Shown here piece by piece: positions 7,804 through 42,645 of a DNA stretch of 64,000 nt (the first letter of the stretch is position 1; each line of letters begins with the position of its first letter). The position numbers and the translations under genes are program-made. The notes below the pieces were generated by a model. That model was not told the DNA's origin. It ran no database searches and saw nothing but the letters and a program-made list of their open reading frames with translations. Origin of the DNA: Terriglobales bacterium (GTDB lineage: Bacteria; Acidobacteriota; Terriglobia; Terriglobales; Acidobacteriaceae); NCBI GenBank assembly GCA_050011975.1, contig JBEKIB010000006.1, positions 26,433 to 90,432 on the forward strand, read 5' to 3'.

Positions 7804-8302
7804 GATCTCCCGGAAAAACTGAATCTCGCAATACGCGACTTTCTGCTCTTCCCGCGTTGAATGATAGCGCTCACCACACAGGTTGCCAACCGAAAACGAT
7901 GTGGATTGCGAGCAGAGTTCAACATATTGGACACAATCGTCGGGCCTTTACCTGTGCCTTTATCCGAGGCAATCTTTTGGCGGACTCAATGACGCCTCAA
8001 CAACAAGCACAAACTGCTGCTGGTCGAATCCTGAGCACGCAGACTCTGTCTTTCAACCTGTGCGACCTCGATCGTGAATAACCACGTGACTGGCAAGTAC
8101 CACTTTGGCCTCAACCTTGTCTGTCTGGACGCCGCCCTTGCGACGACGAACATAACTCATTCACTCATCTCATTGACGAGGGAGCCATCTTCATCCTAAG
8201 ATTTGCCGGCACAGGGTTCAGCCAAATACCCGATGGCATCATAATGAGAGTCAAGGGGCAGTTATGTGGATTCGACTCTGCTCTTGGGATTTGTGGTTCT
8301 GA

Positions 8303-9394: not shown

Positions 9395-9416
9395 TCGGTT
9401 CGAGTCTGATCGCTTC

Positions 9417-10355: not shown

Positions 10356-10486
10356 TTTAACCTTGAACTTACACTTGTACCGACTTATTCGACTGTGACC
10401 CCTATCTCATCTTACGCAAAAGCCCCGGTAAAGAATAAATTCCGATGCTCACGTTTGTGCTTTGTTTTCAGTGCCTCTTCCACAGA

Positions 10487-22935: not shown

Positions 22936-23001
22936 GGTGCCAACTGTGCAACATAGGGGTGCCAGATGTGCAACATAGTGGCGCCAGCCGTGCAATACAA
23001 T
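22936..23001 (+). repeat. Three tandem 22-bp direct repeats upstream of the phosphoesterase promoter region
   Basis: The copies are GGTGCCAACTGTGCAACATAGG, GGTGCCAGATGTGCAACATAGT and GGCGCCAGCCGTGCAATACAAT, read directly and contiguous. The conserved core is GTGCAAyAyA. Confidence 0.8.
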
Positions 23002-24432: not shown

Positions 24433-26082
24433 ATGCAGCGGATGCGGCGAACCCCTTTCGATTGGACCGCAGTCGTGGAGATTGATAGCTTGACTACTCG
24501 CCGCAGATTTCTTCGTCAATCTGTGATTGCTGCCGCAGCCGCAATCGTCCCGCGGGCTTTCTCCCAGACCGTGCGGCGTGACCCGACGCCCGTGATCGCG
24601 ACCCTCGATCCAGACAGCCTGGTTCGCTTCGTCGATCCGCTGCCGCTTCCGGTGGTCGCGCAGCCGCAGGGCGATCGTGACGTACCGGGTAAGCCCGGCG
24701 AACGGGCGCCATTCTACCGGGTGCCCATGCGCGCCACCACCACCAAACTTCATCGCGATCTGCCGCCAACTAACGTATGGTCCTACGGCGGTACGGTACC
24801 CGGCGTCATGTTCGATACGCAGAGCCATCAGGGGCTGCTCGTCGAGTGGGTCAATGAACTGCCGCCCAATCACTTTCTCCCCATCGATTACTCAGTGCAT
24901 GGCGCCGAGCGCGGTACCCCCGAGGTGCGTAGCGTCGTGCATCTGCATGGCGGCAAGACGCCTCCCGAAAGCGACGGATATCCCGAAGACTGGAGCGTGC
25001 CCGGTCAATCGCGCACCTACTACTATCCCAACCAGCAGGACCCAGCGCTACTCTGGTACCACGACCACGCGATAGGCATCACCCGGCTGAACGTCTATGC
25101 CGGACTCCTGGGTCTGCACGTGATTCGCAACCAGGCGGAGCAGATGTTGCAGTTGCCCAACGGCAAATACGAGGTCCCGCTCGTGCTCTTCGATCGCCAC
25201 CTCCACATCGATGGCCAGCTAAGTTATCCGCACACGTGGATACCGGAAGTGTTCGGTGAGGTGCCATTGGTCAACGGCAAGATATTCCCTTACCTCGAGG
25301 TAGAGCCGCGCAAGTATCGATTCCGCGTTCTGAACGCCGCGAATGGCCGTGTGTATCGGCTGTCATTGCCCCAGGGCGTCGAGGTCCACCAGATCGGCAC
25401 CGACCAGGGACTGCTCCCCACGCCGGTTAAGGTAACGCACGTAGTGCTGGCGCCGGCGGAGCGCGCCGATCTGGTCATCGACTTCGCACCGCATCGCGGT
25501 ACACGGATTTTGCTATCCGACGATGCCTTCACGTTCATGGAGTTTCGTGTCAGTGCATCGCCGGTCTCCGACCCGAGCGCGTTGCCGGCCACGCTCCGTA
25601 CCGTGCCCCGTATCGCGGAGTCCTCCGCCGTAAAGACGCGCTGGCTCACAGTGGGCGACGAGATCAAAAAAGGATCGTCCGCTTCCGCGGGGATGTTGTT
25701 GAACAAGACGCCGTGGCACATGCCGATCACCGAGAAACCGGTGCTGGGTACCACGGAAATCTGGGAACTCGCGAACCTGACCGAGGAGGTGCAGCCCATT
25801 CACCTGCACCTGGTGCGGTTTCAAATTCTCGATCGTCGCCGCTTCGACGCCTCCGAGTACATGGAAGACGGCGAACTGCGGTATAGCAGGGACCCGGCCA
25901 CGCCTCCCGACCCGAATGAAATGGGCTGGAAGGACACGGTTCGCGTCAACGCTCAGACAGTAACTCGGATCATTGTTCCGTTCGAGGGCTATTCCGGCCG
26001 CTACGCTTGGCACTGCCACAACCTCGAGCACGAAGACAACGAAATGATGCGCCCTTACGCAGTGCTGGCAGCCGGGAGTTAG
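24433..26082 (+). CDS. Multicopper oxidase (CotA/bilirubin-oxidase-like), Tat-exported
   Basis: 549 aa with Tat motif TRRRFLRQS. The four copper-binding motifs are VHLHGG, WYHDHA, PIHLHLV and HCHNLEHEDNEMM. An alternative TTG start at 24490 is preceded by GGAG. Confidence 0.85.
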   Translation: MQRMRRTPFDWTAVVEIDSLTTRRRFLRQSVIAAAAAIVPRAFSQTVRRDPTPVIATLDPDSLVRFVDPLPLPVVAQPQGDRDVPGKPGERAPFYRVPMRATTTKLHRDLPPTNVWSYGGTVPGVMFDTQSHQGLLVEWVNELPPNHFLPIDYSVHGAERGTPEVRSVVHLHGGKTPPESDGYPEDWSVPGQSRTYYYPNQQDPALLWYHDHAIGITRLNVYAGLLGLHVIRNQAEQMLQLPNGKYEVPLVLFDRHLHIDGQLSYPHTWIPEVFGEVPLVNGKIFPYLEVEPRKYRFRVLNAANGRVYRLSLPQGVEVHQIGTDQGLLPTPVKVTHVVLAPAERADLVIDFAPHRGTRILLSDDAFTFMEFRVSASPVSDPSALPATLRTVPRIAESSAVKTRWLTVGDEIKKGSSASAGMLLNKTPWHMPITEKPVLGTTEIWELANLTEEVQPIHLHLVRFQILDRRRFDASEYMEDGELRYSRDPATPPDPNEMGWKDTVRVNAQTVTRIIVPFEGYSGRYAWHCHNLEHEDNEMMRPYAVLAAGS

Positions 26083-26085
26083 AGG

Positions 26086-27651
26086 ATGTCCACAATTCGA
26101 CGAACTTTGGAGGCCGTTATGATACCTGCTTTTGCTCTTTCTTTCTGTCCGGCGCGGTTCCGGCGGATGCAGCTTTGCTTGTTTCTTCTAGCCCTGGCTT
26201 GCCTGTTGCTGCCGATTCCGGCGTGGGCGCAGGTGACCTTCACCGGGCCCCAGCCGAGCGTGAACTTCGGCTCTCAGGCAGTGGGATCGCCCAGCGCACC
26301 GGTTTCCCTGCCCTTCACGATCGCAGCAGGCACGACAGTGGCCAGGATCGCCGTGTTGACCACGGGCGTCGCGGGCAAGGACCTCGCCAATGCGACGGGG
26401 ACCACCTGCACGGCAACGACTTACGCCACAGCCACCAACTGCGTGGTCAACGTCAGCTTCAAGCCCCTGGCGACGGGCCTGCGCCGGGGCGCGGTAGTGT
26501 TCTATTCTGGCGCCCCCAAAACAGCGCTGGCCACGGTGCCCGTTTTTGGCATCGGTACCGGGCCACAGGTGGCCTTTGGGCCGGGTGGCGCGCAGACCAA
26601 CGTGGACGGCAAGTTTGTCAGTCCCATGGGCGTGGCCGTGGATGGGGCGGGCAATGTCTACGTTACCGACATTGACCTCCAAAAGGTGTTCAAGGTGACG
26701 CCGGGTGGCAAACAGACCGCGGTGGGTAGCGGGTTTGAAGTGCCCGAAGGCGTGGCCGTGGACGGGGCGGGCAATGTCTACGTCACCGATAGACAACTCC
26801 AGGCGGTGTTCATGGTAACGCCGGGCGGTGTGGAAACCCAGGTGGGCAGCGGACTGTTCTTTATGCCCATGGGCATCGCCGTGGACGGAGCGGGCGACGT
26901 GTACGTTAGTGATCCCTGGTACGACGTGGTTTACGAGATAACGCCAAGCGGTACACAGACCTCGGTGGGCGGCGGATACAACACACCCGCAGGCGTGGCC
27001 GTGGACGCAGCCGGTAATGTGTACGTCGCTGATTGCTTCGAGGCATCTGTGTTCATGATAACGCCGGGCGGCACACAGACCTCGGTGAATGGCACATTCA
27101 TGACTCCCACAGGCGTCGCCGTGGATGCGGCGGGCAACGTCTACGTTACCGATGCAGGCACCGATGCCGTGTACCAGGTAACGCCGGGCGGCGTGCAAAC
27201 TACAGTAAGCAGTGGGTTGAATGTTCCGGACGGCGTGGCCATCGATGGATCCGGCAACGTCTATATCGCCAATACCTTCAGCGAGCAGGTGCTGAAGGTC
27301 GACCGTGTAGACGCGCCGTCGTTGAGCTTTGATGCCACGAAGGTGGGCTCAACGAGTAAGGACAGTCCGAAGACGGTGGAGGTCGAGAACATCGGCAACG
27401 CTTCCCTTGAATTCTCGGCACTGACGTATCCGGTGGACTTCCCCCAGGGCTCCTTGGACGACGCTTGCAACTCGACCACATCGCTGGCAGACGGCAGCAG
27501 TTGCGCGCTGATCATCGACTTCAGTCCGGTGACCCCGCTCGACGGCAAGACCTCGGTGGTGCTGAACGAAGTCGTAAAGTTGAGGACCAACACCCTCAAC
27601 GTGGCCAACAAGCTGCAAAAGGTGGACGTCACCGGCACGGAGAAAAAATAA
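26086..27651 (+). CDS. Secreted NHL-repeat beta-propeller protein with flanking Ig-like segments
   Basis: 521 aa with six consecutive ~42-aa blades carrying GVAVDGAGNVYVTD...V..VTPGG.QT. The N-terminus is hydrophobic. It starts 4 nt after the multicopper oxidase stop. Confidence 0.8.
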   Translation: MSTIRRTLEAVMIPAFALSFCPARFRRMQLCLFLLALACLLLPIPAWAQVTFTGPQPSVNFGSQAVGSPSAPVSLPFTIAAGTTVARIAVLTTGVAGKDLANATGTTCTATTYATATNCVVNVSFKPLATGLRRGAVVFYSGAPKTALATVPVFGIGTGPQVAFGPGGAQTNVDGKFVSPMGVAVDGAGNVYVTDIDLQKVFKVTPGGKQTAVGSGFEVPEGVAVDGAGNVYVTDRQLQAVFMVTPGGVETQVGSGLFFMPMGIAVDGAGDVYVSDPWYDVVYEITPSGTQTSVGGGYNTPAGVAVDAAGNVYVADCFEASVFMITPGGTQTSVNGTFMTPTGVAVDAAGNVYVTDAGTDAVYQVTPGGVQTTVSSGLNVPDGVAIDGSGNVYIANTFSEQVLKVDRVDAPSLSFDATKVGSTSKDSPKTVEVENIGNASLEFSALTYPVDFPQGSLDDACNSTTSLADGSSCALIIDFSPVTPLDGKTSVVLNEVVKLRTNTLNVANKLQKVDVTGTEKK

Positions 27652-27724: not shown

Positions 27725-29773
27725 ATGAAAAGGACAATCAGTGTCCTGATGGTCTGGATGCTGGTCGGCTGTGGCGTAGCTTTTGGCGCGGCACCGATCG
27801 TTTGGGTCGTTCCGAGCACATTGTTGCGAGTCGGACCAACTGATACCGCGGGCAGCGGAACGACTGCAACTCTCTACGGCGGACAAGGGGAGTACGTTGC
27901 TTTTCAGGTGGCCGTCCAGGCTCCCTCGGGCGGACTTACTAACGTGACCCTGTCCGCTTCGAGTTTGACCGGCCCGGGTGGTGCGACGATTCCCAGTGCG
28001 AATCTGATTCTTTACAGAGAATCGTATATGACGATAACTGCCGCGCAACATAGTTCTTACCCGGGTTTTGTAACCCCCAATCTCCCGTACACCAGTGACG
28101 ATGGAGTTCAGAATGCGCCTATCACCACCAGCAACGAAACTCTCCCCGACGCGCTGATTCCGGCGATTGATCCCGCCACGGGGCTGCACATTTCCGGCGC
28201 CACTTACGAGTTCGAACTCCCCACACTCGCTGCCAGCAACAACGTTGTCTTCTGGGTGGACGCGTTTGTGGCTAGCGGCACGGCTGTTGGAACCTATACA
28301 GGTACTTACACGGTGTCTAGCACACAGGGATCTTTCGAAGGCGCGATTTCGCTGACGGTATGGAATTTCACGCTGCCGCTGCAACCGTCGCTCAAGTCCC
28401 TTTTCGGTGGAGGCGACAGCAATGTGAGTTCCGGAGGTGCACTGGCAGCCGGCATTGAGGCTGCACTTCTCCAAAACAAGCTCATGCCCGACACCGCGGG
28501 CACCGCGTTGGCCAGCGAAAGCACTGACATCAGTCAATATGGCCTGAATGATTTCGACATGGGCTACTATGAAAACGTCTCTTATGGCGCGTGCAGCGGC
28601 AGCGACCTCAAACCTAAGCCTCCTACGTTGGCAGCCTTGCAGACCGCGGTCAACGCGCAACCGACAGGCCTTTACTTGAACGACTACACCGCCGATCCGG
28701 AGTCCAGTTGCACGAATACTGCGTACTACAACTCCGTGATCGCCTGGGCTAAGGTCTTGCATAAAGCAGTTGTCACAGGTGTCCCAGGCCAAGTCGGTGT
28801 CGACAATCTGGTATCACAACGACCCGACTCCGCAGCAGCCGCAGGCGGACTTTTTAACGACGGCCTAGGTACCGGCCGTTCCGCCGTGGATGATTGGACG
28901 ATGCTCCCGCAGGACTATGATGTCGCCCAGACTGATACATTCGATGGGTTACACAATGTGACGTATGTCCTGCAAAAAGGGGACAAGGTCTGGTCGTATA
29001 ACGACGAGGTGCTTGATTACTACTCCCCCAAGTGGGAACTGGATTTCCTGCCTATCAACTATCGCATTTGGCCAGGTTTCCTCAACCAAAGCCTAGGGAT
29101 AACCGGGATGAATTACTGGGCTGTTTCCAACTGGAACTCGGAATCAGCCGCCTGGACCAGTTCCCTGTCCAAAGGTTATACAAACAGCAACAATGGCTAC
29201 TTCCCCGAGGAAGGCATTCTGGTCTATCCGGGCGGGCCCGCGGGCTTGGAAAGCAACTCCACCTATCAAGGCGTAGCTGCATCCATGCGGCTCAAATATT
29301 TACGGGATGGGATGCAAGACTACGAATACCTGCAGTTGCTCAAGAATTGTGGGCAGACTCCTAACCAGGGAGCCATGTATTCCCTGTCCGCATCCAATAG
29401 CGAGTATCCGAACTGGCATGACTGGACAATGAACGAAGCTAACCTGGAATCAGCTCGTGTGACATTGGGGAACCAGATAAGTAGCAATTGCGGTACCGGC
29501 GGTGTGACACTGACGTCGATTGCAGTGACGCCGACGAGCGCGTCAATTGCGGTAGGCGCGACGGAGCCGTTCACGGCCACCGGAACCTACTCAAACGGGA
29601 GCAAGCAGAACTTGACGGGCACAGTAACATGGACCTCATCCTCGAGCACCTCAGCAGCGACGATCGCGGCGACCGGCGTGGCCACCGGGTGGGCGGCCGG
29701 CACGGCTAACATCACAGCCAAGAGCGGCTCGGTGACCTCGAACACGGCGACCCTGACGGTTAGTGCCGAATAA
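27725..29773 (+). CDS. DUF4091 / GH123-like glycoside-hydrolase-domain protein with C-terminal Big_2 Ig-like domain
   Basis: The track ORF starts at 27704. The ATG at 27725 (MKRTISVLMVW) follows GGAG by 6 nt. Family motifs are PIVWVVPSTLLRV...GEYVAFQVAVQAPSGGLTNVTLS, YSPKWELDFLPINYRIWPGF and MRLKYLRDGMQDYEYLQLL. The C-terminus (LTSIAVTPTSASIAVGATEPFTATGTYSNGSKQNLTGTVTWTSS) is Big_2-like. Confidence 0.6.
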   Translation: MKRTISVLMVWMLVGCGVAFGAAPIVWVVPSTLLRVGPTDTAGSGTTATLYGGQGEYVAFQVAVQAPSGGLTNVTLSASSLTGPGGATIPSANLILYRESYMTITAAQHSSYPGFVTPNLPYTSDDGVQNAPITTSNETLPDALIPAIDPATGLHISGATYEFELPTLAASNNVVFWVDAFVASGTAVGTYTGTYTVSSTQGSFEGAISLTVWNFTLPLQPSLKSLFGGGDSNVSSGGALAAGIEAALLQNKLMPDTAGTALASESTDISQYGLNDFDMGYYENVSYGACSGSDLKPKPPTLAALQTAVNAQPTGLYLNDYTADPESSCTNTAYYNSVIAWAKVLHKAVVTGVPGQVGVDNLVSQRPDSAAAAGGLFNDGLGTGRSAVDDWTMLPQDYDVAQTDTFDGLHNVTYVLQKGDKVWSYNDEVLDYYSPKWELDFLPINYRIWPGFLNQSLGITGMNYWAVSNWNSESAAWTSSLSKGYTNSNNGYFPEEGILVYPGGPAGLESNSTYQGVAASMRLKYLRDGMQDYEYLQLLKNCGQTPNQGAMYSLSASNSEYPNWHDWTMNEANLESARVTLGNQISSNCGTGGVTLTSIAVTPTSASIAVGATEPFTATGTYSNGSKQNLTGTVTWTSSSSTSAATIAATGVATGWAAGTANITAKSGSVTSNTATLTVSAE

Positions 29774-29787
29774 CAAACACTAGTTCT

Positions 29788-29817
29788 TACCCCAGCTTCC
29801 GCTAGGAAGCTGGGGTA
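29788..29817 (+). terminator. Strong hairpin between the two DUF4091 paralogs
   Basis: Perfect 13-bp stem TACCCCAGCTTCC-gcta-GGAAGCTGGGGTA, 15 nt after the stop codon. No U-tract follows. Confidence 0.4.
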
Positions 29818-29870
29818 GATCACCTGCAAGGGTCTGGAGCGAGGGCGACATCCTTCTCAATGAGACACCG

Positions 29871-31565
29871 ATGAAATCGATTCAACGTGCTTGCTGCCCA
29901 AGAACTCGAGGTTGGTTTGTAGTTGCAAATTGTTTTGCGATGATTTTTTTTTCGGAGCTTGGCTTGGCCCAGCGGAACGCGATCTCGCCCTCCGGTTTCG
30001 CGGCTGAACCCATTGCCCTCAACAGCAGAGCCTCAGGTGCGACACCCATCGTGTGGGTCGTTCCAAGCTCTCTGCACCGGGTAGGCCCGACCGATGCGCC
30101 GGGTGTCGGAACCGTCGCGGTGATCCGTGCGGCCCGCGGTGAATACCAATCGTTCCAGGTCGCGGTTCAGGCGCCTGGCGGCGGGCTCACTAACGTCAGC
30201 TTTTCGGTTTCCCAGTTGGTGAGCTCCCGAGGCGTGGCGCTTCCTCGGACAAACGTGGTCCTTTATCGGGAATGGTACGTACCGGTGAAGCATCATAGCC
30301 CTACATGGAATGGACCTCCCAACCTCCCGATTACGAGCGTCAACACCTTTCCCGATGCGCTCATTCCGTTTCTTGATCCCGCCACCGGCAAGCCGCCTGT
30401 AGAAGCCCAATTCAGAGCTGTGCATTTCGACCTCGTAGCCGGGCGCAACGCAGTCTTCTGGATCGACCTCTTTGTGCCCCCGGGCACGGCGGCGGGCGAG
30501 TACTGGGGTACATATGCCGTAACCAGTGATCAGGGGGCGTTCGAGGGCCAGATTTGTCTGAAGGTGTGGGGATTTACTTTGCCGCTCGAGCCATCCCTCA
30601 AGTCCAGTTTCAACGGCGCCGGCACAGCGGCACCTGGCGTAAACGGAGAGCTTCTGAGAAACAGGATAATGCCGGACACGGTGAGTCTGGTGAATCAGGC
30701 CAAGTTCATCGATAAGTACGGACTTGTTGCAACGGATCTCGGATTTTGGAGCAGCGTATCCTACGGTCAATGCGATGCGTCGGCTCCGCCCTCCTTGGCA
30801 AGCGTGGAGGCCGCCAAGGCGATGCAGCAGCCAAGTCTCTACTTGTACGACGACAGTGCTGATCCAGAGAGCAGCTGCACGAGTGAGGATTTCTACAATT
30901 CGATGATCAGCTGGGCTCAGGTTTTGCACGAAGCCGGCATAGACAATTTGGTGACGCAGGAACCTGTATCTCAACTCTACAACGATGGGTTGGGAACCGG
31001 GCGCTCGGCGGTTGATATTTGGACCATGCTTCCACTGGCCTATGTCGACGCACAATCCCATACCCCGCCAGGAGTAACCTTTGTTCTGGAAAAGGGGGAC
31101 GCGGCTTGGTCTTACAACGACCAGGTCCAGGATTCCTACTCGCCGAAATGGGAACTGGACTTCCTCCCGATCAACTATCGGATCCAGCCGGGATTCATCA
31201 GCCAGAGTCTGGGGCTCACGGGACTTTTGTATTGGAGCGTCGACGACTGGACCGACCACCCGTGGGAAAACCCCCAAGGCAGGCACAACCTTGGTTATCC
31301 CGGCGAAGGGGTGCTGGTCTACCCGGGTGCGCCCGCAGGCCTCAAAGGTGTGGCTCCGTCCATGCGGCTCAAATACTTGCGCGACGGGGTCGAGGACTAC
31401 GAGTATGTGCAGCTGCTCAAGAACTGTGGCCAGGCTGCATTTGCATTGGCCGAGGCCCAAAAAGTTGGCCCTGACTGGATCCACTGGACGAGAGACGAAG
31501 GCTTGTTGGAATCGGTTCGCGAGCAATTGGGAAGTCAGATCGCCGCCAGCAATTGCGCTCCCTGA
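29871..31565 (+). CDS. DUF4091 / GH123-like glycoside-hydrolase-domain protein (paralog of 27725..29773, no Big_2 domain)
   Basis: 564 aa, collinear with the upstream paralog. Shared motifs are PIVWVVPSSLHRV...GEYQSFQVAVQAPGGGLTNVSFS, YSPKWELDFLPINYRIQPGF and MRLKYLRDGVEDYEYVQLL. Confidence 0.6.
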   Translation: MKSIQRACCPRTRGWFVVANCFAMIFFSELGLAQRNAISPSGFAAEPIALNSRASGATPIVWVVPSSLHRVGPTDAPGVGTVAVIRAARGEYQSFQVAVQAPGGGLTNVSFSVSQLVSSRGVALPRTNVVLYREWYVPVKHHSPTWNGPPNLPITSVNTFPDALIPFLDPATGKPPVEAQFRAVHFDLVAGRNAVFWIDLFVPPGTAAGEYWGTYAVTSDQGAFEGQICLKVWGFTLPLEPSLKSSFNGAGTAAPGVNGELLRNRIMPDTVSLVNQAKFIDKYGLVATDLGFWSSVSYGQCDASAPPSLASVEAAKAMQQPSLYLYDDSADPESSCTSEDFYNSMISWAQVLHEAGIDNLVTQEPVSQLYNDGLGTGRSAVDIWTMLPLAYVDAQSHTPPGVTFVLEKGDAAWSYNDQVQDSYSPKWELDFLPINYRIQPGFISQSLGLTGLLYWSVDDWTDHPWENPQGRHNLGYPGEGVLVYPGAPAGLKGVAPSMRLKYLRDGVEDYEYVQLLKNCGQAAFALAEAQKVGPDWIHWTRDEGLLESVREQLGSQIAASNCAP

Positions 31566-31577
31566 AAGAAGATTGAA

Positions 31578-32756
31578 ATGGCAAGTCTGGTTTCGCTTCC
31601 CGTTGCAGATGCCAGGAGCTCTCCAGCCACCGGGCCGGAGACTGAGCGAATACCTGTCTCGGCAGCCGGCCAGCGTCTAGATTCGCTCGACGCCTTCCGC
31701 GGTTTCGCGATGCTTTGGATTATCGGCGGCGAGGGGTTGATGCTAGGCTTAGCGGCCCTGGGACACAATCGAGTCATCGACACTGTCGTTTACCAGTTGA
31801 GCCACAGTCCTTGGCAGGGGCTCCGCTTTTACGACTGTATCTGGCCATCCTTCATGCTGATCGTCGGAGTCTCGGTGCCCCTCTCGTTTGCCAAGCGCTC
31901 CCTTACTCAGACCTATCATCAACAGTTGGCTCACGCAGCAAAGCGAGCTCTCGTCCTTTTCTTGCTGGGCTCGCTGCGCGAATCGGTTTTGCTTGGTTCG
32001 CCATATCTGATCGAATTGAGCAGCGCCTTGCAACCCATCGCTATTGCCTATTTCGTGGCTGTTCTGGTAGTCCGCAAGTCCTGGCGTTTCCAGGCGTGGC
32101 TTGGCGCCGGGATCGTCGCTGCCTATGGGCTGGTATTAGCCTTCATCCGGGCTCCAGGCATATCGGCGGGGAGCTATGAGTTCAATCACAACCTGGTTCA
32201 CTGGGTCGATATTGCATTGCTCGGCCAAGCTCACTGGGACCGATGGCCTTTTGCAGACGAAGGCTGGGGGACCGTCCTCAGCATGATTCCAACCATCTCA
32301 ACTACGCTTCTCGGCTTGCTCATTGGCGAATTGCTCATGAGCGCGCGCACGAAGCAAAATAAGGCCAGGTGGATCGGCGGTATAGGACTTGGGTGCTTGG
32401 CGATTGGCTTTCTAACAAGCCTGGTTGTGCCGGTCGTCATGAAGATGTGGACTGCTTCGTACGCTCTCCTATCCGCTGGGTGGGCGTGCCTAATGCTCCT
32501 GGTTTTCTATTGGCTTATTGACATCCGCGGCTATCGAAAATGGGCGTTTCCTTTGACCGTCATCGGGATGAACGCCATTTTCATATACATGTTTACGAGC
32601 ATTATTCACCTTGATCCAATCGTCGACGTCTTCACTCGCGGGATCGTGCGGGTTTGGCCCAATTCCGGACTACTCTTCCAACAGGTCACCATTCTTGCGG
32701 TCGAATGGGTCATCCTGTTCTGGATGTACAAACGAAAGGTTTTCGTTAAGGCCTGA
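31578..32756 (+). CDS. HGSNAT-like (DUF5009/DUF1624) polytopic membrane acyltransferase
   Basis: 392 aa, about 10-11 TM helices. The N-terminal QRLDSLDAFRGFAMLWIIG motif matches the RLxSLDxxRG signature of the heparan-alpha-glucosaminide N-acetyltransferase-like family. Confidence 0.65.
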   Translation: MASLVSLPVADARSSPATGPETERIPVSAAGQRLDSLDAFRGFAMLWIIGGEGLMLGLAALGHNRVIDTVVYQLSHSPWQGLRFYDCIWPSFMLIVGVSVPLSFAKRSLTQTYHQQLAHAAKRALVLFLLGSLRESVLLGSPYLIELSSALQPIAIAYFVAVLVVRKSWRFQAWLGAGIVAAYGLVLAFIRAPGISAGSYEFNHNLVHWVDIALLGQAHWDRWPFADEGWGTVLSMIPTISTTLLGLLIGELLMSARTKQNKARWIGGIGLGCLAIGFLTSLVVPVVMKMWTASYALLSAGWACLMLLVFYWLIDIRGYRKWAFPLTVIGMNAIFIYMFTSIIHLDPIVDVFTRGIVRVWPNSGLLFQQVTILAVEWVILFWMYKRKVFVKA

Positions 32757-32828
32757 AAAGGCCCATAACCTCATGATCGCGCCAGGAACACGTACAGTGT
32801 CAAGCGAAGCTTCGGAAGGGGAATCAGC

Positions 32829-33989
32829 ATGAAATTTACCTATTACTGTTTTTGCATCCTCCTGAGCGTTCTCATCTTGTCGTCGTGGAGCGGGATTGCC
32901 TGGGCACAAGATTCTATGCTGGCCCGCACGCCGCCTATGGGATGGAACAGTTGGAATCATTTTGCATGCCAGGCGAGCGACGCCGTGGTGCGGGCCCAGG
33001 CGGATGCGCTCGTTACAAGCGGAATGAAGTCGGTTGGATATACCTACATCCTGATCGACGACTGCTGGCAAGCGACCCGTGACGCCGCAGGATACATTCG
33101 TCCCAATGCAAAATTCCCTGACATGAAAGCGCTGGCCGATTATGTTCATAGCAAAGGCTTAAAGATTGGAATCTATTCTTCGCCTGGCCCGAAGACCTGC
33201 GAGGGTTATACGGGAAGTTATGGTCATGAAGAACAGGATGCTCAAACTTATGCTAACTGGGGAATGGATTATTTGAAGTACGACTTGTGCAGCTATGACG
33301 GAATGGGCGATCAAGTTGCCGCGTACAAAAAAATGGGTGATGCGCTCAAAAAGACCGGTCGACCTATTGTCTACGCTCTTTGCCAATACGGAATGCAAAA
33401 AGGCTGGCAGTGGGCTGCCTCGGTTGGTGGCAACCTGTGGCGTACGGACGACGATATTCGCGACGACTACTACGTGATGGCGGAACTTGGATTCGGACAG
33501 AACGGCCTCGAGCAGTTCGCCGGCCCCGGGCACTGGAATGACCCCGACATGCTCGAAATTGGCAACGGGGGGATGACCACTGACGAGTATCGGACACACA
33601 TGAGTTTGTGGTGCATCCTGGCTGCTCCGCTTATTACGGGCAACAATCTTGCAGCCATGAGTGCTGAGACGCGGGATATTCTCACCAACCCGGAGGTCAT
33701 TGCGATTGACCAGGACCCGCTCGGCATTCAGGGTCACCGGATCAAGCAAGAAGGGCCCTTGGAAGTGTGGGTGAAGCCCCTGAAGGATGGAAGCGCTGCT
33801 GTGGGCCTGTTTAATCGCGGATGGGGAGCAATGCCGGTGACCGTTGACCTTCGAGATGTTGGCCTTGGCAATTCGGTGGTTGTGCGGGATCTCTGGGCAA
33901 AAAAAGATCTCGGGTCATTGCAGGAGAAGTACACCGCGATTGTTCCCCAGCATGGAGTCGTCATGCTCCAGATAAAGCGAGGCAATTAA
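32829..33989 (+). CDS. Glycoside hydrolase family 27 (alpha-galactosidase / alpha-N-acetylgalactosaminidase)
   Basis: 386 aa with a signal peptide. Motifs are PPMGWNSWNHF, ILIDDCW, MDYLKYDLC (nucleophile region) and WRTDDDI (acid/base region). Confidence 0.85.
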   Translation: MKFTYYCFCILLSVLILSSWSGIAWAQDSMLARTPPMGWNSWNHFACQASDAVVRAQADALVTSGMKSVGYTYILIDDCWQATRDAAGYIRPNAKFPDMKALADYVHSKGLKIGIYSSPGPKTCEGYTGSYGHEEQDAQTYANWGMDYLKYDLCSYDGMGDQVAAYKKMGDALKKTGRPIVYALCQYGMQKGWQWAASVGGNLWRTDDDIRDDYYVMAELGFGQNGLEQFAGPGHWNDPDMLEIGNGGMTTDEYRTHMSLWCILAAPLITGNNLAAMSAETRDILTNPEVIAIDQDPLGIQGHRIKQEGPLEVWVKPLKDGSAAVGLFNRGWGAMPVTVDLRDVGLGNSVVVRDLWAKKDLGSLQEKYTAIVPQHGVVMLQIKRGN

Positions 33990-33993
33990 TTTT

Positions 33994-36117
33994 ATGGCTG
34001 CCGTGGTTCAGACAAAACGGGTTGAGGCTGGATTGAAAAAACGAAGGTTTGTGCGCTGGTCGCTTTGTACTCTTGTTTTGATTCGGGCTTTCCTGGTCGC
34101 CGCATTTGCCATCGCGGGACATAACGTGCTCCTGCCGCAACCGCAGCAGATACATTATGGGCCGCGCCAACTTCGAATACGAGGCCTGAGTATCCGGTTG
34201 ACGGCGGATCCCGGCGATGAGGATCGCTTTGCCGCGGGGCAGTTGTCGAGTTGCCTCTCTGATGTGGCCAAGGAACCCGTTCGCGTCTCCCAGGGCGAGG
34301 CTTCGGGCACGGTGATTGTGCTTAAACGCACAGGAGAGGTTGGCGCGTTGCCGCTTCCTGGCGAACACCCAGGGCCGGCATCCCGTGAGGCTTACACTTT
34401 GAAGGTCACGCCCGAAGGAGGTGAAGTCCAAGCGACATCATCAGCCGGCTTGTTCTACGGAGCGCAAACTCTCTGCCAGTTAATCGAAGGCAGCGCGGCC
34501 GAGGCGCTGCTTCCGGAGGTGGAAATTCATGACTGGCCATCGCTGGCGTACCGCGGAACCATGGTGGACATGAGCCACGGGCCCTTACCCACGGAAGCTG
34601 AGATCGAGCGGCAACTTGACTTCCTTGCCCGTTGGAAGGCTAACCAGTATTACCTTTATAGTGAAGCCAGTATTGAGCTCGAGGGATATCCGTTGCTTAA
34701 TCCCGAAGGCCGCCTCTCCAAGGATGAAGTGCGGCGGATCATAGCTTACGGCCGTGAACGGCACATTGACGTCATCCCCAATCTGGAGCTTTATGCTCAT
34801 CTGCATGACCTCTTTCGCGTGGAAGAATACTCCCAACTCTCCGATCTCCCGCATGGAGTCGAGTTCAATCCGAGCGACCCCGCCGTTATGGCTCTATTGA
34901 GTAACTGGATTACCCAGTTAGCCGATCTGTTTCCGAGTCCTTTCGTCAGTATCGGATTCGATGAGACTTTCCAAATCGAGATGGCCGTCAAGCAACAGGG
35001 TGCGTCCGCCACCGCAACCCGATTGTTTGTTAAGCAGCTTACTGATGTTACTCGCCTTTTTCAGCAACGTGGTAAGCAAGTTATGGCTTGGGCGGACATC
35101 ATGGTCAGATATCCCGAGATCGTTGGCGAACTGCCGCATGGCCTCATCGCGGTCGCTTGGTATTACACTGCTGATCCTGGCGACAAAGAGTACAAACACT
35201 GGCTGGGACCTCTGGTGGCCAAGGCAGTGCCACACTTTGTTCAGCCGGGTGTGACTAGTTGGGCTCAGATTGCTCCCGACTTCGACACGAGCTTTGAAAA
35301 TATCGACACTTTTATCGCGGCTGGGCGACAGTCGAAAGCACTGGGCGTCATCAACTCCATCTGGACGGACGATGGTCAGGTCCTGCTACGCATGTCCCTG
35401 CCGGGGATGGCTTATGGCGCCGCTGCGGCGTGGCAATCCACGCCTATAGACAGGCCGCATTTCTTTTCGGATTATGCGCGGATCGTGTATCCGGCCCATA
35501 TTTCCGCGGATGTTGCCACGGCACTTGAAAAGCTCTCTCAGTCTGAAACCGAATTGCAAAAGGTCCTGGGCGAGCAAACGCAATTTGCCTTGTGGGAGGA
35601 TCCTTTTTTCCCTACCTACCTCAAGGGCTTGGCGCAAAATCAAGAACATTTGCGCCAGACCCGTCTGCTGGCCGAAGAAGCCGAGAGTCACCTCTATCAT
35701 GCTTTAGCTCTCGGGGCCGATCCCACGACAATAAATAGCCTCTTGGTTGGAGCTCGGCTGCTCGACTATGCTGGGCAGAAGTTCCAGACCCCCTCCGAAC
35801 TTATCGAGCTGTGGGGACGAATTGGTACGACGCGTCCTGATACAGACAAGTGGTGGAACGAGTGGGAATCCCAGGTCGTTTACCAGGATCATTCACACAT
35901 CGTCGACCTGATGGACGCTATTACAGAACTGCGCCCATATTACCGTGCGGAGTGGCTGGATGAATATTCTCCCTATCGGCTCGCTTCCGCACTGGGGAGA
36001 TGGGATGCTGAATACGAATATTGGCGAAGATTCCAGCAGCGATTGCAGCAGTTCTCGGACAGCTCCCACGAAGGAGACGTCCTGCCTCCGTTGGAGAAGC
36101 TCGCTCAGGAGCACTAA
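33994..36117 (+). CDS. GH20-like glycoside hydrolase (divergent beta-N-acetylhexosaminidase fold)
   Basis: 707 aa. IHDWPSLAYRGTMVDMSHGPL resembles the GH20 I.D.P.f.yRG.mlD motif. IDVIPNLELYAHL and SIGFDETF occupy the places of PEID.PGH and HiGGDE. The D-E pair is retained but other motifs are divergent. Confidence 0.55.
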   Translation: MAAVVQTKRVEAGLKKRRFVRWSLCTLVLIRAFLVAAFAIAGHNVLLPQPQQIHYGPRQLRIRGLSIRLTADPGDEDRFAAGQLSSCLSDVAKEPVRVSQGEASGTVIVLKRTGEVGALPLPGEHPGPASREAYTLKVTPEGGEVQATSSAGLFYGAQTLCQLIEGSAAEALLPEVEIHDWPSLAYRGTMVDMSHGPLPTEAEIERQLDFLARWKANQYYLYSEASIELEGYPLLNPEGRLSKDEVRRIIAYGRERHIDVIPNLELYAHLHDLFRVEEYSQLSDLPHGVEFNPSDPAVMALLSNWITQLADLFPSPFVSIGFDETFQIEMAVKQQGASATATRLFVKQLTDVTRLFQQRGKQVMAWADIMVRYPEIVGELPHGLIAVAWYYTADPGDKEYKHWLGPLVAKAVPHFVQPGVTSWAQIAPDFDTSFENIDTFIAAGRQSKALGVINSIWTDDGQVLLRMSLPGMAYGAAAAWQSTPIDRPHFFSDYARIVYPAHISADVATALEKLSQSETELQKVLGEQTQFALWEDPFFPTYLKGLAQNQEHLRQTRLLAEEAESHLYHALALGADPTTINSLLVGARLLDYAGQKFQTPSELIELWGRIGTTRPDTDKWWNEWESQVVYQDHSHIVDLMDAITELRPYYRAEWLDEYSPYRLASALGRWDAEYEYWRRFQQRLQQFSDSSHEGDVLPPLEKLAQEH

Positions 36118-36167
36118 ATTTGTGAATACCAGCTTCTGCAACGGCGCAGTACCTTAAGGATAGAAGA

Positions 36168-36896
36168 ATGCCTCAGATAACCTGGCACAAGTCCCTTTCT
36201 CTTCTTACTTCATTGCTCGCGGTTGGTATTTGTGTCGCCGCGGTAGCAGAACCGCCGGACCTCCAGCACACGCTCCGCGCATTCAAGACCGACGTGCCTA
36301 TCCCGCTTGATGGCGATCTCGCGAAATGGAGTGGGGCGGATACAGTGACGTTTGAAGGCAAGCCTCTCGCCGGCCATCCTCGGCATGCGACCGTCTACGC
36401 TCTGTGGGACACGCAAAATCTTTACCTGGCATTCGATGTCCATTCCTCGAAACTTCAGGCCACCGTTCGTGAACGCGATGGCGACAAACTCTGGGAAGAC
36501 GATGGTGTGGAGTTCCTGATTGATGCATTGTCTGATCACACGAAAGAATTCCTGCCCGACGATTTCTCCTACCACATTAACATTCTCAATGCGGTATATG
36601 ATGACCGCGGCACGCCTTCGGGGCAGCCCGACCCTCGGTGGAATGGTAATGCGCAACACATAGTGCGAATACTGGATGATTATCACTATGTTGTACAGGT
36701 ATCGATCCCTTGGGTGGAGATCGGCGTTGAGCCGGTGGAAAGGCATACCGTTCTGGGCATCGATTTCGGCGTAAATGGCAAGGACCCTGAGACGGGAGCG
36801 TACGACTATTTTGACTGGTGCGGTCTCAAGGCATTCCATAACCCATCCGGCTTCGGCCAATTACTCCTTGCAGGTCGGCGCAATTCGTCCAAATGA
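36168..36896 (+). CDS. CBM9-like carbohydrate-binding (sugar-binding) secreted protein
   Basis: 242 aa with a signal peptide. The pattern PIPLDGDLAKWSGADTVTFEG...LYLAFDVHS...WEDDGVEFLID is typical of the family 9 CBM-like fold. Confidence 0.5.
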   Translation: MPQITWHKSLSLLTSLLAVGICVAAVAEPPDLQHTLRAFKTDVPIPLDGDLAKWSGADTVTFEGKPLAGHPRHATVYALWDTQNLYLAFDVHSSKLQATVRERDGDKLWEDDGVEFLIDALSDHTKEFLPDDFSYHINILNAVYDDRGTPSGQPDPRWNGNAQHIVRILDDYHYVVQVSIPWVEIGVEPVERHTVLGIDFGVNGKDPETGAYDYFDWCGLKAFHNPSGFGQLLLAGRRNSSK

Positions 36897-36932: not shown

Positions 36933-37940
36933 TCATCTCTTCCGTGGCGCTGGACCGGTGGAATCCCGCAGCACCGGCGTAGTGCTGATGTGAATCTCTT
37001 GCCCCATGTTGGCCAAGCCTTCCGCCGTGCGGTACAGCGCGTCGAAGGCTTTCCTGCCCAATTCCTCGCGTGACAAACGAATGGTTGTAAGCGGAGGGTG
37101 AGTGTACTGACTTAGTTCGATATCGTCAAATCCCACGACTGAAATGTCTCTGGGAACATCGAGACCTGCCGCTGTAATCGCACGCAGCGCCCCGATCGCC
37201 GTGAGATCGTTCGAAGTCACTACTGCAGTGGGAGGGTTCGGTTGCGAGAGCATCCCCCGCATCGCAATATCTCCTCCATCAACCCGGTGGTTGCCCTCCG
37301 CTTCGATCGGCTGCCACCGCGGAACACCGAGTTCTCGGAGACAACTCAGAAATGCCGAACGTCGCGTGCGAGCCGACTTCAAGATCAGGGGACCGCTGAT
37401 AAACCCAATCCGCTGATGACCGAGGGAAACCAAATGGCGAATCACCTCTCCGATACCTTTTGCGTAATCCACCACCACCCGGCTCACTAGCGGCTTCACC
37501 TCAGCCAAATCCAGGAACACCATGGGAAAGCGGCGGCGGTAAAGCTCCGTCAGAAGATGAGGGTCGAGTTCCGAGGTCATGATCGCGATGCCGTCCACCT
37601 TCCGTTCGATCATCTTCCTTACACATATAGCCATTCGATCCGACTTGTAGTCGGTGTTTGCCACCAGCACTTCGTAGCTGTGCTGGATCGCCGCGTCATC
37701 GAAACTCTTTACTAACTCGGGGAAAAACGGATTGGATATATCGGAGATAATCAGCCCGAACATCCGGCTTTTTCCTGAAACCAATGCACGGGCCTGGCCG
37801 TTCGGGTAATAGTTGAGATGGCGAATCACTTTCCAGACTCGGGCAGCAGTTTTGGCGTCGACCAATTCCGGGCGGTTGATGGTCCTCGAGATCGTGGCTG
37901 CCGAAACTTTCGCCCGAGCTGCCACTTGCTTGATGTTCAT
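36933..37940 (-). CDS. LacI-family transcriptional regulator
   Basis: 335 aa with N-terminal HTH MNIKQVAARAKVSAATISRTIN, followed by a periplasmic-binding-protein-like sugar-binding core. Confidence 0.9.
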   Translation of the reverse strand: MNIKQVAARAKVSAATISRTINRPELVDAKTAARVWKVIRHLNYYPNGQARALVSGKSRMFGLIISDISNPFFPELVKSFDDAAIQHSYEVLVANTDYKSDRMAICVRKMIERKVDGIAIMTSELDPHLLTELYRRRFPMVFLDLAEVKPLVSRVVVDYAKGIGEVIRHLVSLGHQRIGFISGPLILKSARTRRSAFLSCLRELGVPRWQPIEAEGNHRVDGGDIAMRGMLSQPNPPTAVVTSNDLTAIGALRAITAAGLDVPRDISVVGFDDIELSQYTHPPLTTIRLSREELGRKAFDALYRTAEGLANMGQEIHISTTPVLRDSTGPAPRKR

Positions 37941-38072
37941 AGCATTACTCTCGCCGCTCCGCCGGTTACCTGTCTAACTTTCGAGGACCATAACTCCCGG
38001 CCCTTCTTTCGGCAGCCTCGGAAGGAAATCCGCTGATACGGCGCAACCCAAAGGCACATCCCCGCGAGATCC

Positions 38073-39146
38073 TCACACACGGCGCGACTGCAGATAATGG
38101 ACCTCGCTGAGACCTCGCAGACAGTCCGCGGCGCTTTCTGCCGTAATGTCTCGCTGCGGCGTTGCCAGCATCTCGTAGCCAACCATGAACTTCTGCACGG
38201 TTGCCGAGCGCAACAACGGCGGGTAGTAGTGGGCGTGGAAGTGCCACTCCGGATGCGATTGTCCATCGGTAGGCATCTGATGAAAGCCCATGGAGTAGGG
38301 GAAAACGGTCTCAAAAAGATTGTCGTACCGGGTGGTGAGTCGTTTAAGGATGTCGCCCAGCAAATCGCGCTCTTGGCTGCTCAGTTGATCCATGGCCCCG
38401 AAGTGGCGGCGGCTTAAAAGTAGCGTTTCGAAGGGCCAAACCGCCCAGTAGGGAACGACGACCACGAAGCCGTCGTTCTCGCAAACGATTCGCTCTCCCA
38501 GCTGGAGTTCGAGGCGCAAGTAGTCGCACAGCAGGCAAGAGCCAATACGCGCGCGGTATTGCAGCAGCGAGTTCTGTTCGGTTTGGGTTTCATGGGGCAC
38601 CGTGGCGTTGGCCCAGACCTGGCAGTGAGGATGCGGATTGCTTGCGCCCATGATCACGCCGCGGTTTTCAAAGACGAGCACGTGATTCACAAAAGGCATC
38701 GAGCCTAATGCCTGGTACTGCTCCACCCACACGTCGACGACTTGCCGCAACTCGGCCGGGCTCAAGCGCGGGATCGTGAGGTCGTGCCGAGGTGACAAAC
38801 ATATGACTCGGCAAACGCCTTGTTCCGACCGCGCCACGATCAGTCCTGATTCCTCGATCTCGCGATGCGGTGTGTCCGGCAACAAGGCGGGATAATCATT
38901 GTCAAAAACGAAGGTGGACGAATACCGAGGATTGCGCGCAGTTCCGGCCCGGGCATTCCCCGGACACAAATAACAGGATGGGTCATAGGCCAGCGTAGCT
39001 TCGATGGCGCGCTCTTCTACTTTTCCGAGCCATGGACGCTGCGTGCGCTGCGGCGAGACAAGTATCCAGCGGCCCGTCAAAGGGTTGAGGCGTTGGTGCG
39101 GGAAATCCGCTAGTTCCGCAGTGCGCGTCATCGGTGAAGTTGGCAT
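38073..39146 (-). CDS. galT: Galactose-1-phosphate uridylyltransferase
   Basis: 357 aa with the zinc-site region CYLCPGN and active site HPHCQVWA (HxHxQ). Confidence 0.9.
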
Positions 39147-39207
39147 GATTTCTCTTGATACCCGTTGGGATGAGGTGTCAGTCGATCTCGCAGCTTTCCT
39201 ATTGGGC

Positions 39208-40365
39208 TCACCTTAGGAATGGCCCCACTCCCTCGGATATGTCGCATATATAAATGTCGGGGCGAAGGCCGGTGGCGCAGTAGTAGGCGTCGCCGACTTG
39301 GCGCGCGAAGTCGGCCGCGGTTTCAGCCCGCACCAGATTGACTGTGCATCCGCCGAAGCCACCACCCGTCATCCGGGCTCCATATACGCCGCTGCTTCGA
39401 TTGGCGATCTCAACCATCAGATCCAGCTCCTGGCAGCTTACCTCGTAGTTGTTCTTCAGACTAAGATGCGATTCCGCCATCAATTCTCCGAATAAAGTGA
39501 GATCGCCAGCTTCCATGGCTGATGCCGCTCTTAACACGCGGTCGTTTTCCTCGATGACATGGCAGGCTCGCTTGTAGATCGTTGCCGGAAGCGCCGAGCG
39601 GTTGTCTTCCAGTTCACGCTTGCTCACATCGCGTAGCGCGCGGACGCCAGGAACTTTCGCCACGAGCAGTCGCACCGCCTCTTCGCACTCGCCGCGCCTG
39701 AGGTTGTACTCCGAGCTGGCAAGCTCGTGTTTCACCATGGTGTTGCAAATAACCAGGCGGGCTTGGTCGGGCACTCTAAGTAGGCGGAAATCCAGGGAAC
39801 GGCAATCCAGCAGCAGCGCATGGCCGCTCTTGCCGTAACAGGCGATGAACTGATCCATGATTCCGCATCGGGCGCCCACGTACTCGTTCTCCACCCACTG
39901 GCAGAGCAGGGCGAGCTTGCGTAGGTCAATCGGATACCCTGCCGAATCCAGAAGAGCGTAGGCCACGGAAGTTTCGAGCGCTGCCGACGAACTCAGACCG
40001 GAACCAAGCGGAACTTCGCTCTGAATATAAAGGTTGGCTCCCGGCAGCAGGAAACCAGCCCGTTCGAGCGCCGCTGCAATTCCGATAACATAGTCCGTCC
40101 AATGGCCAGTGCGCTTCGCCGGAAGATGATCAAGATGGGCACGGGCCTCACCCGTCGCGTTGGCAGAGTGGATGACCAGCGTGCGGTCGGTGCGCTCTTC
40201 GATTGCCACCCCGCAAGCCAGGTTGATGGCGGCGGGCATGACGTAGCCGTCGTTATAGTCCGTGTGTTCCCCGATGAGGTTGACGCGTCCGGGAGCGCGA
40301 TAAACTCGCCCGCGCTCGCCGAATCGTGCGCGCAGTCCTGCTAACCGGGTCGAGACCAGTTCCAT
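39208..40365 (-). CDS. galK: Galactokinase
   Basis: 385 aa with galactokinase signature [19 protein letters not shown] and GHMP kinase motif [11 protein letters not shown]. Confidence 0.9.
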
Positions 40366-40441
40366 AAGCTAAAACCGTGCCGCGTCGCGCGGCCGAGGCT
40401 GTAAACACAAACGACGCTACTTCAGATCAAAATGCCTCGCA

Positions 40442-40669
40442 TCACTTATCGTTCGCTTCGCGCTCGCTTACTTCTCGTGACCGACGCCGGCGCGCTAGAA
40501 GAACCATGAGAAAACCGAATACCAACAAAGCTGCTCCCCATCCCAGGTTGATGCTAAAGCCGGAACCCGCCTGATGCTGCGGCAGATCGTGCAGAATGCC
40601 CCAGAGCATCAAAATCAGACCGTAGACGGAAAACAGCACGCCAATGGGCAGCCGAACGTCGAGTCGCAC
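40442..40669 (-). CDS. Small two-helix membrane protein encoded immediately downstream of the SSS transporter
   Basis: 75 aa with two hydrophobic helices (IGVLFSVYGLILMLWGIL and GWGAALLVFGFLMVLLA) and a basic C-terminal tail. It starts 9 nt after the transporter stop. No family recognised. Confidence 0.45.
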   Translation of the reverse strand: MRLDVRLPIGVLFSVYGLILMLWGILHDLPQHQAGSGFSINLGWGAALLVFGFLMVLLARRRRSREVSEREANDK

Positions 40670-40678
40670 AGTACCTCA

Positions 40679-42627: not shown

Positions 42628-42645
42628 AATGTAATCGATTACATT
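42628..42645. promoter_or_regulatory. LacI-type palindromic operator upstream of the SSS-galK-galT operon
   Basis: Perfect 18-bp palindrome AATGTAATCGATTACATT. Its core TGTAATCGATTACA fits the LacI/GalR-family consensus TGnAAnCGnTTnCA. It lies 96-113 nt upstream of the transporter start codon. Confidence 0.6.

Follow-up and report, generated by a model that had tools for sequence, protein, structure and literature searches.

A TonB-receptor-linked gene cluster with variant GH123 proteins in peat and soil Acidobacteriaceae, a candidate locus for degradation of a β-GalNAc- and α-galactose-containing glycan

Six consecutive genes, here named P1 to P6, lie at 27725–36896 on the plus strand of a 64,000-nucleotide stretch from a Terriglobales bacterium of the Acidobacteriaceae (GenBank assembly GCA_050011975.1, contig JBEKIB010000006.1, positions 26,433 to 90,432; hereafter the window). 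On balance, these genes appear to represent the distal half of a catabolic locus that is linked to a TonB-type receptor and recurs in peat and soil Acidobacteriaceae, and the target of this locus would be a heteroglycan with internal β-linked N-acetylgalactosamine (GalNAc) and terminal α-galactose (Gal), probably phosphorylated; locus and substrate are proposed together, with modest confidence. The glycan probably also bears terminal β-linked N-acetylhexosamine (HexNAc), and phosphate esters, as well as amino sugars in free or oxidised form, probably play a part. This proposal draws on family membership, conserved residues, export signals, synteny and the monophyly of a group of GH123 proteins with an Asp-Pro-Glu motif, from which the activities, the order and location of the steps and the identity of the substrate are deduced.

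A first-pass annotation of the same DNA had described six plus-strand genes of named families as a degradation locus for a galactose/hexosamine glycan. The open reading frame (ORF) listing and the Pfam and NCBIfam scans agree on the genes and their families, with intergenic gaps of 4–98 nt, and the presence of HexNAc- and Gal-specific enzymes in a co-conserved cluster bears out the general assignment. The plus-strand block begins further upstream, at 18991, with genes for a receptor, a phosphoesterase, a multicopper oxidase and an NHL propeller preceding P1. Every soluble member carries an export signal, either a signal peptide or a lipobox.

GH123 proteins with a displaced glutamate

GH123 and GH20 are retaining families of β-N-acetylhexosaminidases that rely on substrate-assisted catalysis. 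P1 (27725 (ATG) or 27704 (TTG) to 29773) and P2 (29871–31565) had been recognised earlier as two DUF4091/GH123-like proteins, one of them with a Big_2 domain, and both can now be placed more precisely in GH123 group 1, next to NgaCa. NgaCa from Cohnella abietis (PDB 8K2F) is an oligosaccharide-releasing β-N-acetylgalactosaminidase with a cleft-shaped active site, which acts only on Gal-β-1,3-GalNAc-β-pNP (pNP, p-nitrophenyl) to release the disaccharide, by substrate-assisted catalysis and with retention of the anomeric configuration. Its catalytic pair is D287/E288 in the motif T-A-D-E-I-G-H-Y, and seven further residues are common to all groups (Sumida et al. 2024, PMC11087588 and its supplement). 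No paper on GH123 in Acidobacteria was found in the literature searched.

P2 matches NgaCa with an E-value of 2e-131 over P2 residues 61–557 and P1 with one of 5e-96, the two paralogs being 52% identical to each other. P1 has a weak Pfam match to the GH123 N-domain, a C-terminal Big_2 domain at residues 604–683 (E 2.6e-11) and a lipobox conserved among its orthologues as L(V/A)GC. P2, which matches GH123_cat, has a Sec-type signal peptide; the public gene call (P0001, 533 aa) falls 31 codons short of the ATG at 29871 and lacks this peptide, and the longer N-terminus is kept among orthologues. Both proteins share with NgaCa full-length homology and a two-domain layout. They differ from it in being exported, one of them as a lipoprotein with Big_2, and in being encoded within a receptor-linked cluster, whereas the NgaCa gene stands beside an ABC transporter.

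The catalytic site of both paralogs reads A-D-P-E-S-S-C, against A-D-E-I/V-x-x-C in canonical members, so the contiguous Asp-Glu pair is absent. Since the distance from Asp to Cys is the same as in the canonical motif, this is a substitution rather than an inserted residue; two extra residues follow the conserved Cys relative to NgaCa. Eight of the nine pan-GH123 conserved residues, including the stabiliser Asp, are otherwise kept, with all seven of those outside the catalytic pair (NgaCa D109, W144, Y363, G399, W403, Y434 and R449) present in P1 and in P2.

This motif is not peculiar to the window. Among 119 full-length homologues, 91 carry Asp-Pro-Glu and 28 the canonical pair, and the 91 form a single clade (support 0.98) in a tree computed with the motif columns masked. 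The Glu one residue after Pro occurs in 91/91 sequences of the clade, and Asp-Pro-Glu-Ser-x-Cys is invariant in a sample of 30. After clustering at 50% identity, the variant is found in 7–8 of the 141 nearest cluster representatives. The clade also has active-site changes of its own: Asp417 for Thr/Ala (73/91), a gained Asp269, Gln363 for Met, Ser in place of the Arg after Trp403 (NgaCa numbering; P2 position 456), and loss of Trp197 and Trp218. A third GH123 paralog, with the canonical Asp-Glu, is encoded on the same contig about 5 kb before the window starts. Another group-1 variant, A-N-E-V, in which the stabiliser Asp is replaced by Asn, was seen in three of the 50%-cluster representatives (P0291, P0293 and P0297).

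The strict conservation of the relocated Glu argues for activity of the Asp-Pro-Glu proteins, and this is the main uncertainty in the interpretation of the locus. According to a first alternative, P1 and P2 would be catalytically dead surface glycan-binding proteins, hydrolysis being left to the canonical third paralog, GH20 and GH27. The exchange of the acid/base Glu for Pro would suit such a role, as would the lipoprotein nature and Ig-like domain of P1, and a canonical Asp-Glu paralog is found near the receptor gene in L012, L018 and G010 (two related loci and a same-genus locus) and on the same contig here. However, the invariance of the next-position Glu, together with the retention of the equivalents of the stabiliser Asp, Tyr363 and Trp403, is more readily explained by a catalytic residue that has moved than by decay of the site, and many loci (L013–L017) have only the Asp-Pro-Glu type within 10 kb, making loss of catalysis unlikely in our judgement.

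The clade-specific changes (Asp417, Asp269, Gln363 and the lost Arg), along with the amine-handling genes that co-occur in related loci, would also be compatible with an altered chemistry, in which these proteins cleave a non-acetylated β-hexosamine or another 2-substituted sugar by a classical two-carboxylate mechanism, and the NagX-like protein and an aminotransferase deal with the free amine. Nevertheless, such chemistry is without precedent in GH123, the Asp stabiliser and Tyr363, which secure the acetamido group in NgaLy and NgaCa, are retained, and sequence comparison is the entire basis for the idea, which we consider more doubtful than loss of activity.

The GH27, GH20 and CBM9 proteins

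P4 (32829–33989) is a secreted GH27 protein (Melibiase_2, E 7e-72) whose nearest relatives are plant α-galactosidases (E 7e-108). In an alignment with the plant enzyme 6F4C, its nucleophile motif K-Y-D and acid/base motif R-T-D-D-D fall on the catalytic Asp residues. The segment C-Q-Y-G-M aligns with C-E-W-G-D of the same enzyme, which places the bulky residues Gln and Met at the two N-acetyl pocket positions, E203/L206 in human GLA and S188/A191 in NAGAL. Because Gln and Met stand where α-N-acetylgalactosaminidases have Ser and Ala, P4 is probably an α-galactosidase.

P5 (33994–36117) contains GH20b and GH20 catalytic domains. Its G-F-D-E motif, with the Asp-Glu catalytic pair, aligns with G-G-D-E, and R187, D323, E324, W457 and D459 are invariant in 25 homologues. 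An AlphaFold model (mean pLDDT 77) gives its best full-length superposition with GcnA from S. gordonii (2EPL) and GH20C from S. pneumoniae (5A6B), with TM scores of 0.63–0.64 on the query. P5 is predicted to be a GcnA/GH20C-type exo-β-N-acetylhexosaminidase with a C-terminal helical domain. The three-domain architecture and the Asp-Glu pair are shared with both enzymes; the differences are a sequence identity of only 14–15% and an N-terminal export/anchor segment on P5.

P6 (36168–36896) is a secreted stand-alone CBM9-like protein (CBM9_1, E 1.5e-18), related to CBM9-2 of T. maritima xylanase 10A (1I82; E 1e-8).

Conservation of the locus

The upstream half of the block is also encoded on the plus strand. 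The TonB-dependent receptor reported earlier at 18991 is confirmed as a receptor-like outer-membrane barrel protein with CarboxypepD_reg and OMP_b-brl_4 domains (18991–22857), and is followed by a secreted phosphoesterase of family PF04185 (23168–24154), for which no PDB relative was found, a multicopper oxidase (24433–26082) and an NHL-repeat β-propeller with a weak gluconolactonase-like (SGL) match (26086–27651).

Orthologous loci occur in two other genomes of the genus, G004 and G010, so that the locus is present in 3/37 genus genomes (this genome, G000, and 2/36 others) and in 8/401 genomes of the class (E ≤ 1e-80; the count includes one unpublished genome, G354, on which no other result depends). 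Rare in reference genomes, it is common in metagenome-assembled genomes (MAGs) from peat, fen and soil assigned to Acidobacteriaceae, Terriglobales and "Sulfotelmatobacter". Related loci were gathered with an alignment query, a single-protein query of genome contigs having given one locus only, and partners were counted as genes within 10 kb in those 34 of the retrieved loci in which GH123 is of the Asp-Pro-Glu type.

The co-occurrence implied by the earlier reading holds across these 34 loci: GH27 is found in 25, GH20 in 23 and the phosphoesterase in 20, while NagX, the receptor and a HemL-like class-III aminotransferase are each found in 16, an EamA transporter in 13 and the multicopper oxidase in 6. 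In the four loci whose GH123 genes are all canonical, none of GH27, GH20, the phosphoesterase, NagX, the receptor, the aminotransferase and EamA occurs. The commonest order is receptor, phosphoesterase, (oxidase), NHL, one or two GH123 genes, (NagX), GH27, GH20, aminotransferase, EamA and (CBM9), the genes in brackets being optional. In G004, G010 and many MAG loci, a receptor orthologue with 77–89% identity stands first in this order, and the NHL propeller is syntenic in G004, G010 and several MAGs. Neither G004 nor G010 has the multicopper oxidase.

The aminotransferase–EamA pair lies directly 3' of GH20 in relatives, and is displaced in this window to the minus strand at 9417–11839 (EamA transporter, 9417–10355; aminotransferase, 10487–11839). 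Since this pair has moved away, the CBM9 gene abuts GH20 here, whereas it follows the pair in L012, L016, L017 and L048. Besides the PF04185 phosphoesterase, several related loci (L012:12813–14000, L017, L024, L026, L029, L032 and L043) contain a purple-acid-phosphatase-like (Metallophos) gene, a hint that the substrate is phosphorylated.

Bacteroidota polysaccharide utilisation loci (PULs) and the Xanthomonas loci for carbohydrate utilisation with TonB-dependent transporters (CUT loci) are receptor-linked clusters of carbohydrate-active enzymes. In them, likewise, a gene for a TonB-type receptor heads secreted glycoside hydrolases and a surface lipoprotein enzyme. Unlike in the PULs, with their SusC/SusD pair, no SusD-like gene was detected among the scanned ORFs here, and the receptor is of the Acidobacterial CarboxypepD_reg/OMP_b-brl_4 type.

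The patchy distribution within genus and class could be taken to mean that the cluster remodels or recycles an exopolysaccharide or envelope glycan of the cell itself rather than external food, and turnover of capsule or O-antigen has been suggested for some group-1 enzymes (Sumida et al. 2024, PMC11087588). Nevertheless, neither the locus nor its immediate surroundings contain glycosyltransferase or export genes, an uptake receptor heads it, and catabolic modules (pectin/hexuronate, Leloir and ong-like) flank it, leaving this self-directed role with only a slim chance.

The NagX-like acetyltransferase

P3 (31578–32756) is predicted to be a polytopic membrane acetyltransferase of the NagX/HGSNAT type. 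It matches the NCBIfam model NagX_SO_3504 over its full length (residues 32–391; E 8e-69), with a score of 232 bits that is below the equivalog cut-off of 480, and human HGSNAT with an E-value of 5e-9. The catalytic His of HGSNAT (F-K-H-A-S-W-N-G-L), which carries the acetyl group in enzymes of this type (PMC9007349), has its counterpart in His76 of P3 (L-S-H-S-P-W-Q-G-L). A gene of this kind in a bacterial amino-sugar cluster has precedent, because NagX, which is common in chitin operons, was required for growth on glucosamine in fitness data, and a transmembrane N-acetylation was proposed for it (Price et al. 2022, PMC9007349). With the Shewanella SO_3504-type NagX and HGSNAT, P3 shares the membrane topology, the full-length model match and the catalytic His, and both bacterial genes sit in an amino-sugar utilisation cluster. 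P3 differs in its sub-threshold score, in lacking nagP, nagK and nagA partners, none of which is found within the window, and in being optional in orthologous loci.

A role for free-amine or otherwise modified hexosamines at the locus is plausible, given the catalytic His of P3, the class-III aminotransferase, and the D-aminoacylase and pyridoxal-phosphate (PLP) deaminase genes of related loci. The earlier note had gone further and assumed that free-amine hexosamines must be re-acetylated before cleavage. As NagX is absent from G004 and G010 and from more than half of the related loci, re-acetylation is not a core step.

The substrates named in that note, galactosaminogalactan, Pel or a PNAG-like (poly-N-acetylglucosamine) exopolysaccharide, do not fit. 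Galactosaminogalactan and Pel are α-1,4-linked, and α-1,4-specific hydrolases of Gal/GalNAc/GalN (galactosamine) polymers are exemplified by Sph3 (GH135), Ega3 (GH114) and PelA (GH166). None of these three families is represented in the locus; the only GH135 gene of the genome (Sph3-like, Spherulin4), which scores over the Pfam cut-off, is on another contig (G000:C152:8935–9612), and no GH114 gene exceeds the family cut-off. PNAG, for its part, would need neither a β-N-acetylgalactosaminidase nor an α-galactosidase. A partly de-N-acetylated GalNAc/Gal polymer of this sort, re-acetylated so that the hexosaminidases can act, would account for the NagX/HGSNAT-like gene inside the cluster, for a GH27 family that includes both α-Gal and α-GalNAc enzymes and for the amino-group-handling genes of related loci, but it is very improbable, the least favoured of the alternatives, given the α-1,4 linkages set against β-HexNAc-directed, substrate-assisted GH123 and GH20 (PMC11087588), the Gal-favouring pocket of GH27 and the lack of NagX in 18/34 loci.

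The neighbouring galactose operon

An SSS-galK-galT-LacI operon for the Leloir galactose route occupies 36933–42532 on the minus strand, LacI being encoded at 36933–37940. These genes adjoin the cluster, as had been reported; they are convergent with it, and thus do not simply follow it. A perfect 18-bp palindrome of the LacI/GalR operator type lies 5' of the SSS gene at 42628–42645 (core TGTAATCGATTACA), and is the sole perfect copy in the 5.08-Mb assembly. No second LacI operator was found within three mismatches elsewhere in the window, and none near the hydrolase genes. Because the operator is unique to the region upstream of SSS, LacI most likely controls its own gal operon only. Galactose released by GH27 could still feed this operon. 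In G004, the gal operon lies on the other side of the receptor gene. No dedicated regulator of the cluster was identified in the window.

An ong-like module for amino sugars

The ong pathway of Pseudoalteromonas prydzensis catabolises N-acetylglucosaminic acid, and among its components are receptors of the TonB type, a GH20 enzyme located in the periplasm and a transporter of the SSS family (Jiang et al. 2022, PMC9537276). Ong-like genes are found within 10 kb in 11–14 of the 34 related loci. In a distant group of loci, EamA, a dihydrodipicolinate-synthase (DHDPS)-type gene, a D-aminoacylase-like amidohydrolase and a PLP fold-type-III enzyme stand between GH123 and GH20, and the same loci also hold a lactonase, a RidA protein and a purple-acid-phosphatase-like gene.

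In this genome, ong-like genes share one minus-strand operon with the canonical GH123 paralog, upstream of the window (L009:11879–18908, on G000:C6). The operon comprises an IclR regulator, a 3-hydroxyacyl-CoA-dehydrogenase-like gene, a 127-aa RidA, the amidohydrolase, the PLP enzyme and GH123, and is followed by a GcvH-like gene. The OngB/OngC/OngD-like trio (L009:13608–16638, minus strand) is defined by family-level matches only: the amidohydrolase resembles D-aminoacylases (1e-78) more than PpOngB (8e-64), and the PLP enzyme, of D-Thr-aldolase/D-Ser-dehydratase-like type, matches D-Thr aldolase (5e-55) and D-threo-3-hydroxyaspartate dehydratase (1e-40). Common to this genome and the ong cluster are therefore TonB-type receptors, GH20, a D-aminoacylase-like deacetylase, a PLP fold-type-III enzyme, a 127-aa RidA and an SSS gene nearby. 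On the other hand, the ong cluster is tied to chitinases, while the module here is tied to GH123 and GH27; a search of this genome yielded no AA10 lytic polysaccharide monooxygenase (LPMO); the amidohydrolase and the PLP enzyme are nearer to other families, as described; and no KdgK or other kinase was seen in the L009 operon, with a DHDPS-type gene and a lactonase present instead in related loci.

NagA (TIGR00221) was not found in this 96.7%-complete assembly, where the best match reached 31 bits, and searches for an agaS-type deaminase and NagB gave weak sub-threshold matches only. A search for GH112 (galacto-N-biose/lacto-N-biose phosphorylase) gave no match, but its control was likewise silent, so this negative carries no weight.

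A proposed pathway and its weak points

In the pathway that we propose, P1 (lipoprotein with an Ig-like domain) and the secreted P2 would act as NgaCa-like, cleft-type enzymes and cut at β-GalNAc inside the chain to give oligosaccharides, and the receptor encoded at 18991 would import the fragments. GH27 would then take off α-Gal, GH20 the terminal β-HexNAc and the phosphoesterase the phosphate. The NagX-like P3 would use cytoplasmic acetyl-CoA for the N-acetylation of free hexosamine in the periplasm, a step that would be optional because many related loci have no NagX gene. Galactose would enter the neighbouring Leloir operon. The amino sugar would probably follow an ong-like N-acetylhexosaminic acid route, through the D-aminoacylase-like deacetylase, the PLP deaminase/aldolase and RidA encoded beside the third GH123 paralog.

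Several points weigh against this proposal. P1 and P2 are, by sequence, members of GH123 group 1, and their activity should not be assumed from NgaCa because the residue equivalent to its acid/base Glu (E288) is Pro. Of the Trp residues at the –2/–3 subsites of NgaCa, W197 is replaced by Ala/Gly and W218 by Val or another residue, and at W249 P2 has the same Trp and P1 a Tyr. NgaCa itself has no known natural substrate, and does not cleave GA1, Gb5 or chondroitin sulfates (PMC11087588). The presence of NagX, CBM9 and the multicopper oxidase varies from locus to locus. The cluster and the gal operon share no operator or promoter, and the two adjoin in 1/34 related loci. In this genome, about 35 kb separate the ong-like module from the cluster, and an oxidative route is not required by the data, since NagA is present in 4/5 other locus-bearing genomes; this route is thus a lead rather than a necessity.

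Plant glycosylinositol phosphoceramide (GIPC) head groups, chondroitin- or teichuronic-acid-like polymers and invertebrate arthro-series glycolipids were weighed as other substrates. Each fits some of the genes and none was adopted, either because a required enzyme (α-N-acetylhexosaminidase or β-glucuronidase) is lacking or because the fit lies beyond the present analysis.

A more ambitious possibility is put forward tentatively, and we regard it as unlikely. The Asp-Pro-Glu clade would be a new GH123 catalytic variant with its acid/base two positions away from the stabiliser Asp, as in GH18 and GH56, and it would work within an undescribed pathway together with GH27, GH20, phosphoesterases, NagX and ong-like genes, by which peat Acidobacteria would depolymerise a phosphorylated β-GalNAc/α-Gal glycan (e.g., microbial cell-wall polymers) and burn the amino sugar oxidatively via N-acetylgalactosaminic acid instead of through NagA/NagB.

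Whatever its exact chemistry, the conserved neighbourhood offers a concrete, testable context for oligosaccharide-releasing GH123 enzymes, whose natural substrates Sumida et al. could not find, namely α-Gal-capped, β-GalNAc-containing and probably phosphorylated glycans that would enter by way of a TonB-type receptor. The strict Asp-Pro-Glu motif, in turn, provides a test of how far a substrate-assisted glycosidase tolerates a moved acid/base. The recurrent link to D-aminoacylase, PLP-enzyme and RidA genes may point to a soil counterpart of an oxidative amino-sugar route so far known for LPMO-oxidised chitin in marine bacteria, which, if true, would be relevant to how carbon and nitrogen are turned over in peatlands. 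The statement in the first-pass annotation that no characterised system combines these parts remains valid for the combination, but not for the parts, which have characterised relatives in NgaCa (PMC11087588), NagX (PMC9007349) and ong (PMC9537276).

Other features of the window

A stable hairpin with a stem of 12–13 bp lies between P1 and P2 on the plus strand (29788–29817). It is GC-rich and has no T-run behind it, and the spacer folds with a minimum free energy of –40.4 kcal/mol (z –4.7); a role in processing or stability, or as a partial terminator, is possible. An Rfam scan of 18000–43500 gave no match, and a promoter/terminator scan returned fewer matches than in shuffled sequence. The 310-nt spacer between the receptor and phosphoesterase genes contains three tandem repeats of about 22 bp (22936–23001; core GTGCAAyAyA), which may be a binding array for a regulator.

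Divergent from the receptor gene of the cluster, a pectin/hexuronate module occupies 459–18704 on the minus strand, and comprises an esterase, GH28, a second TonB-type receptor, SDR, UxaE, MFS and UxaC. This module also neighbours the locus in G010 and in several MAG loci.

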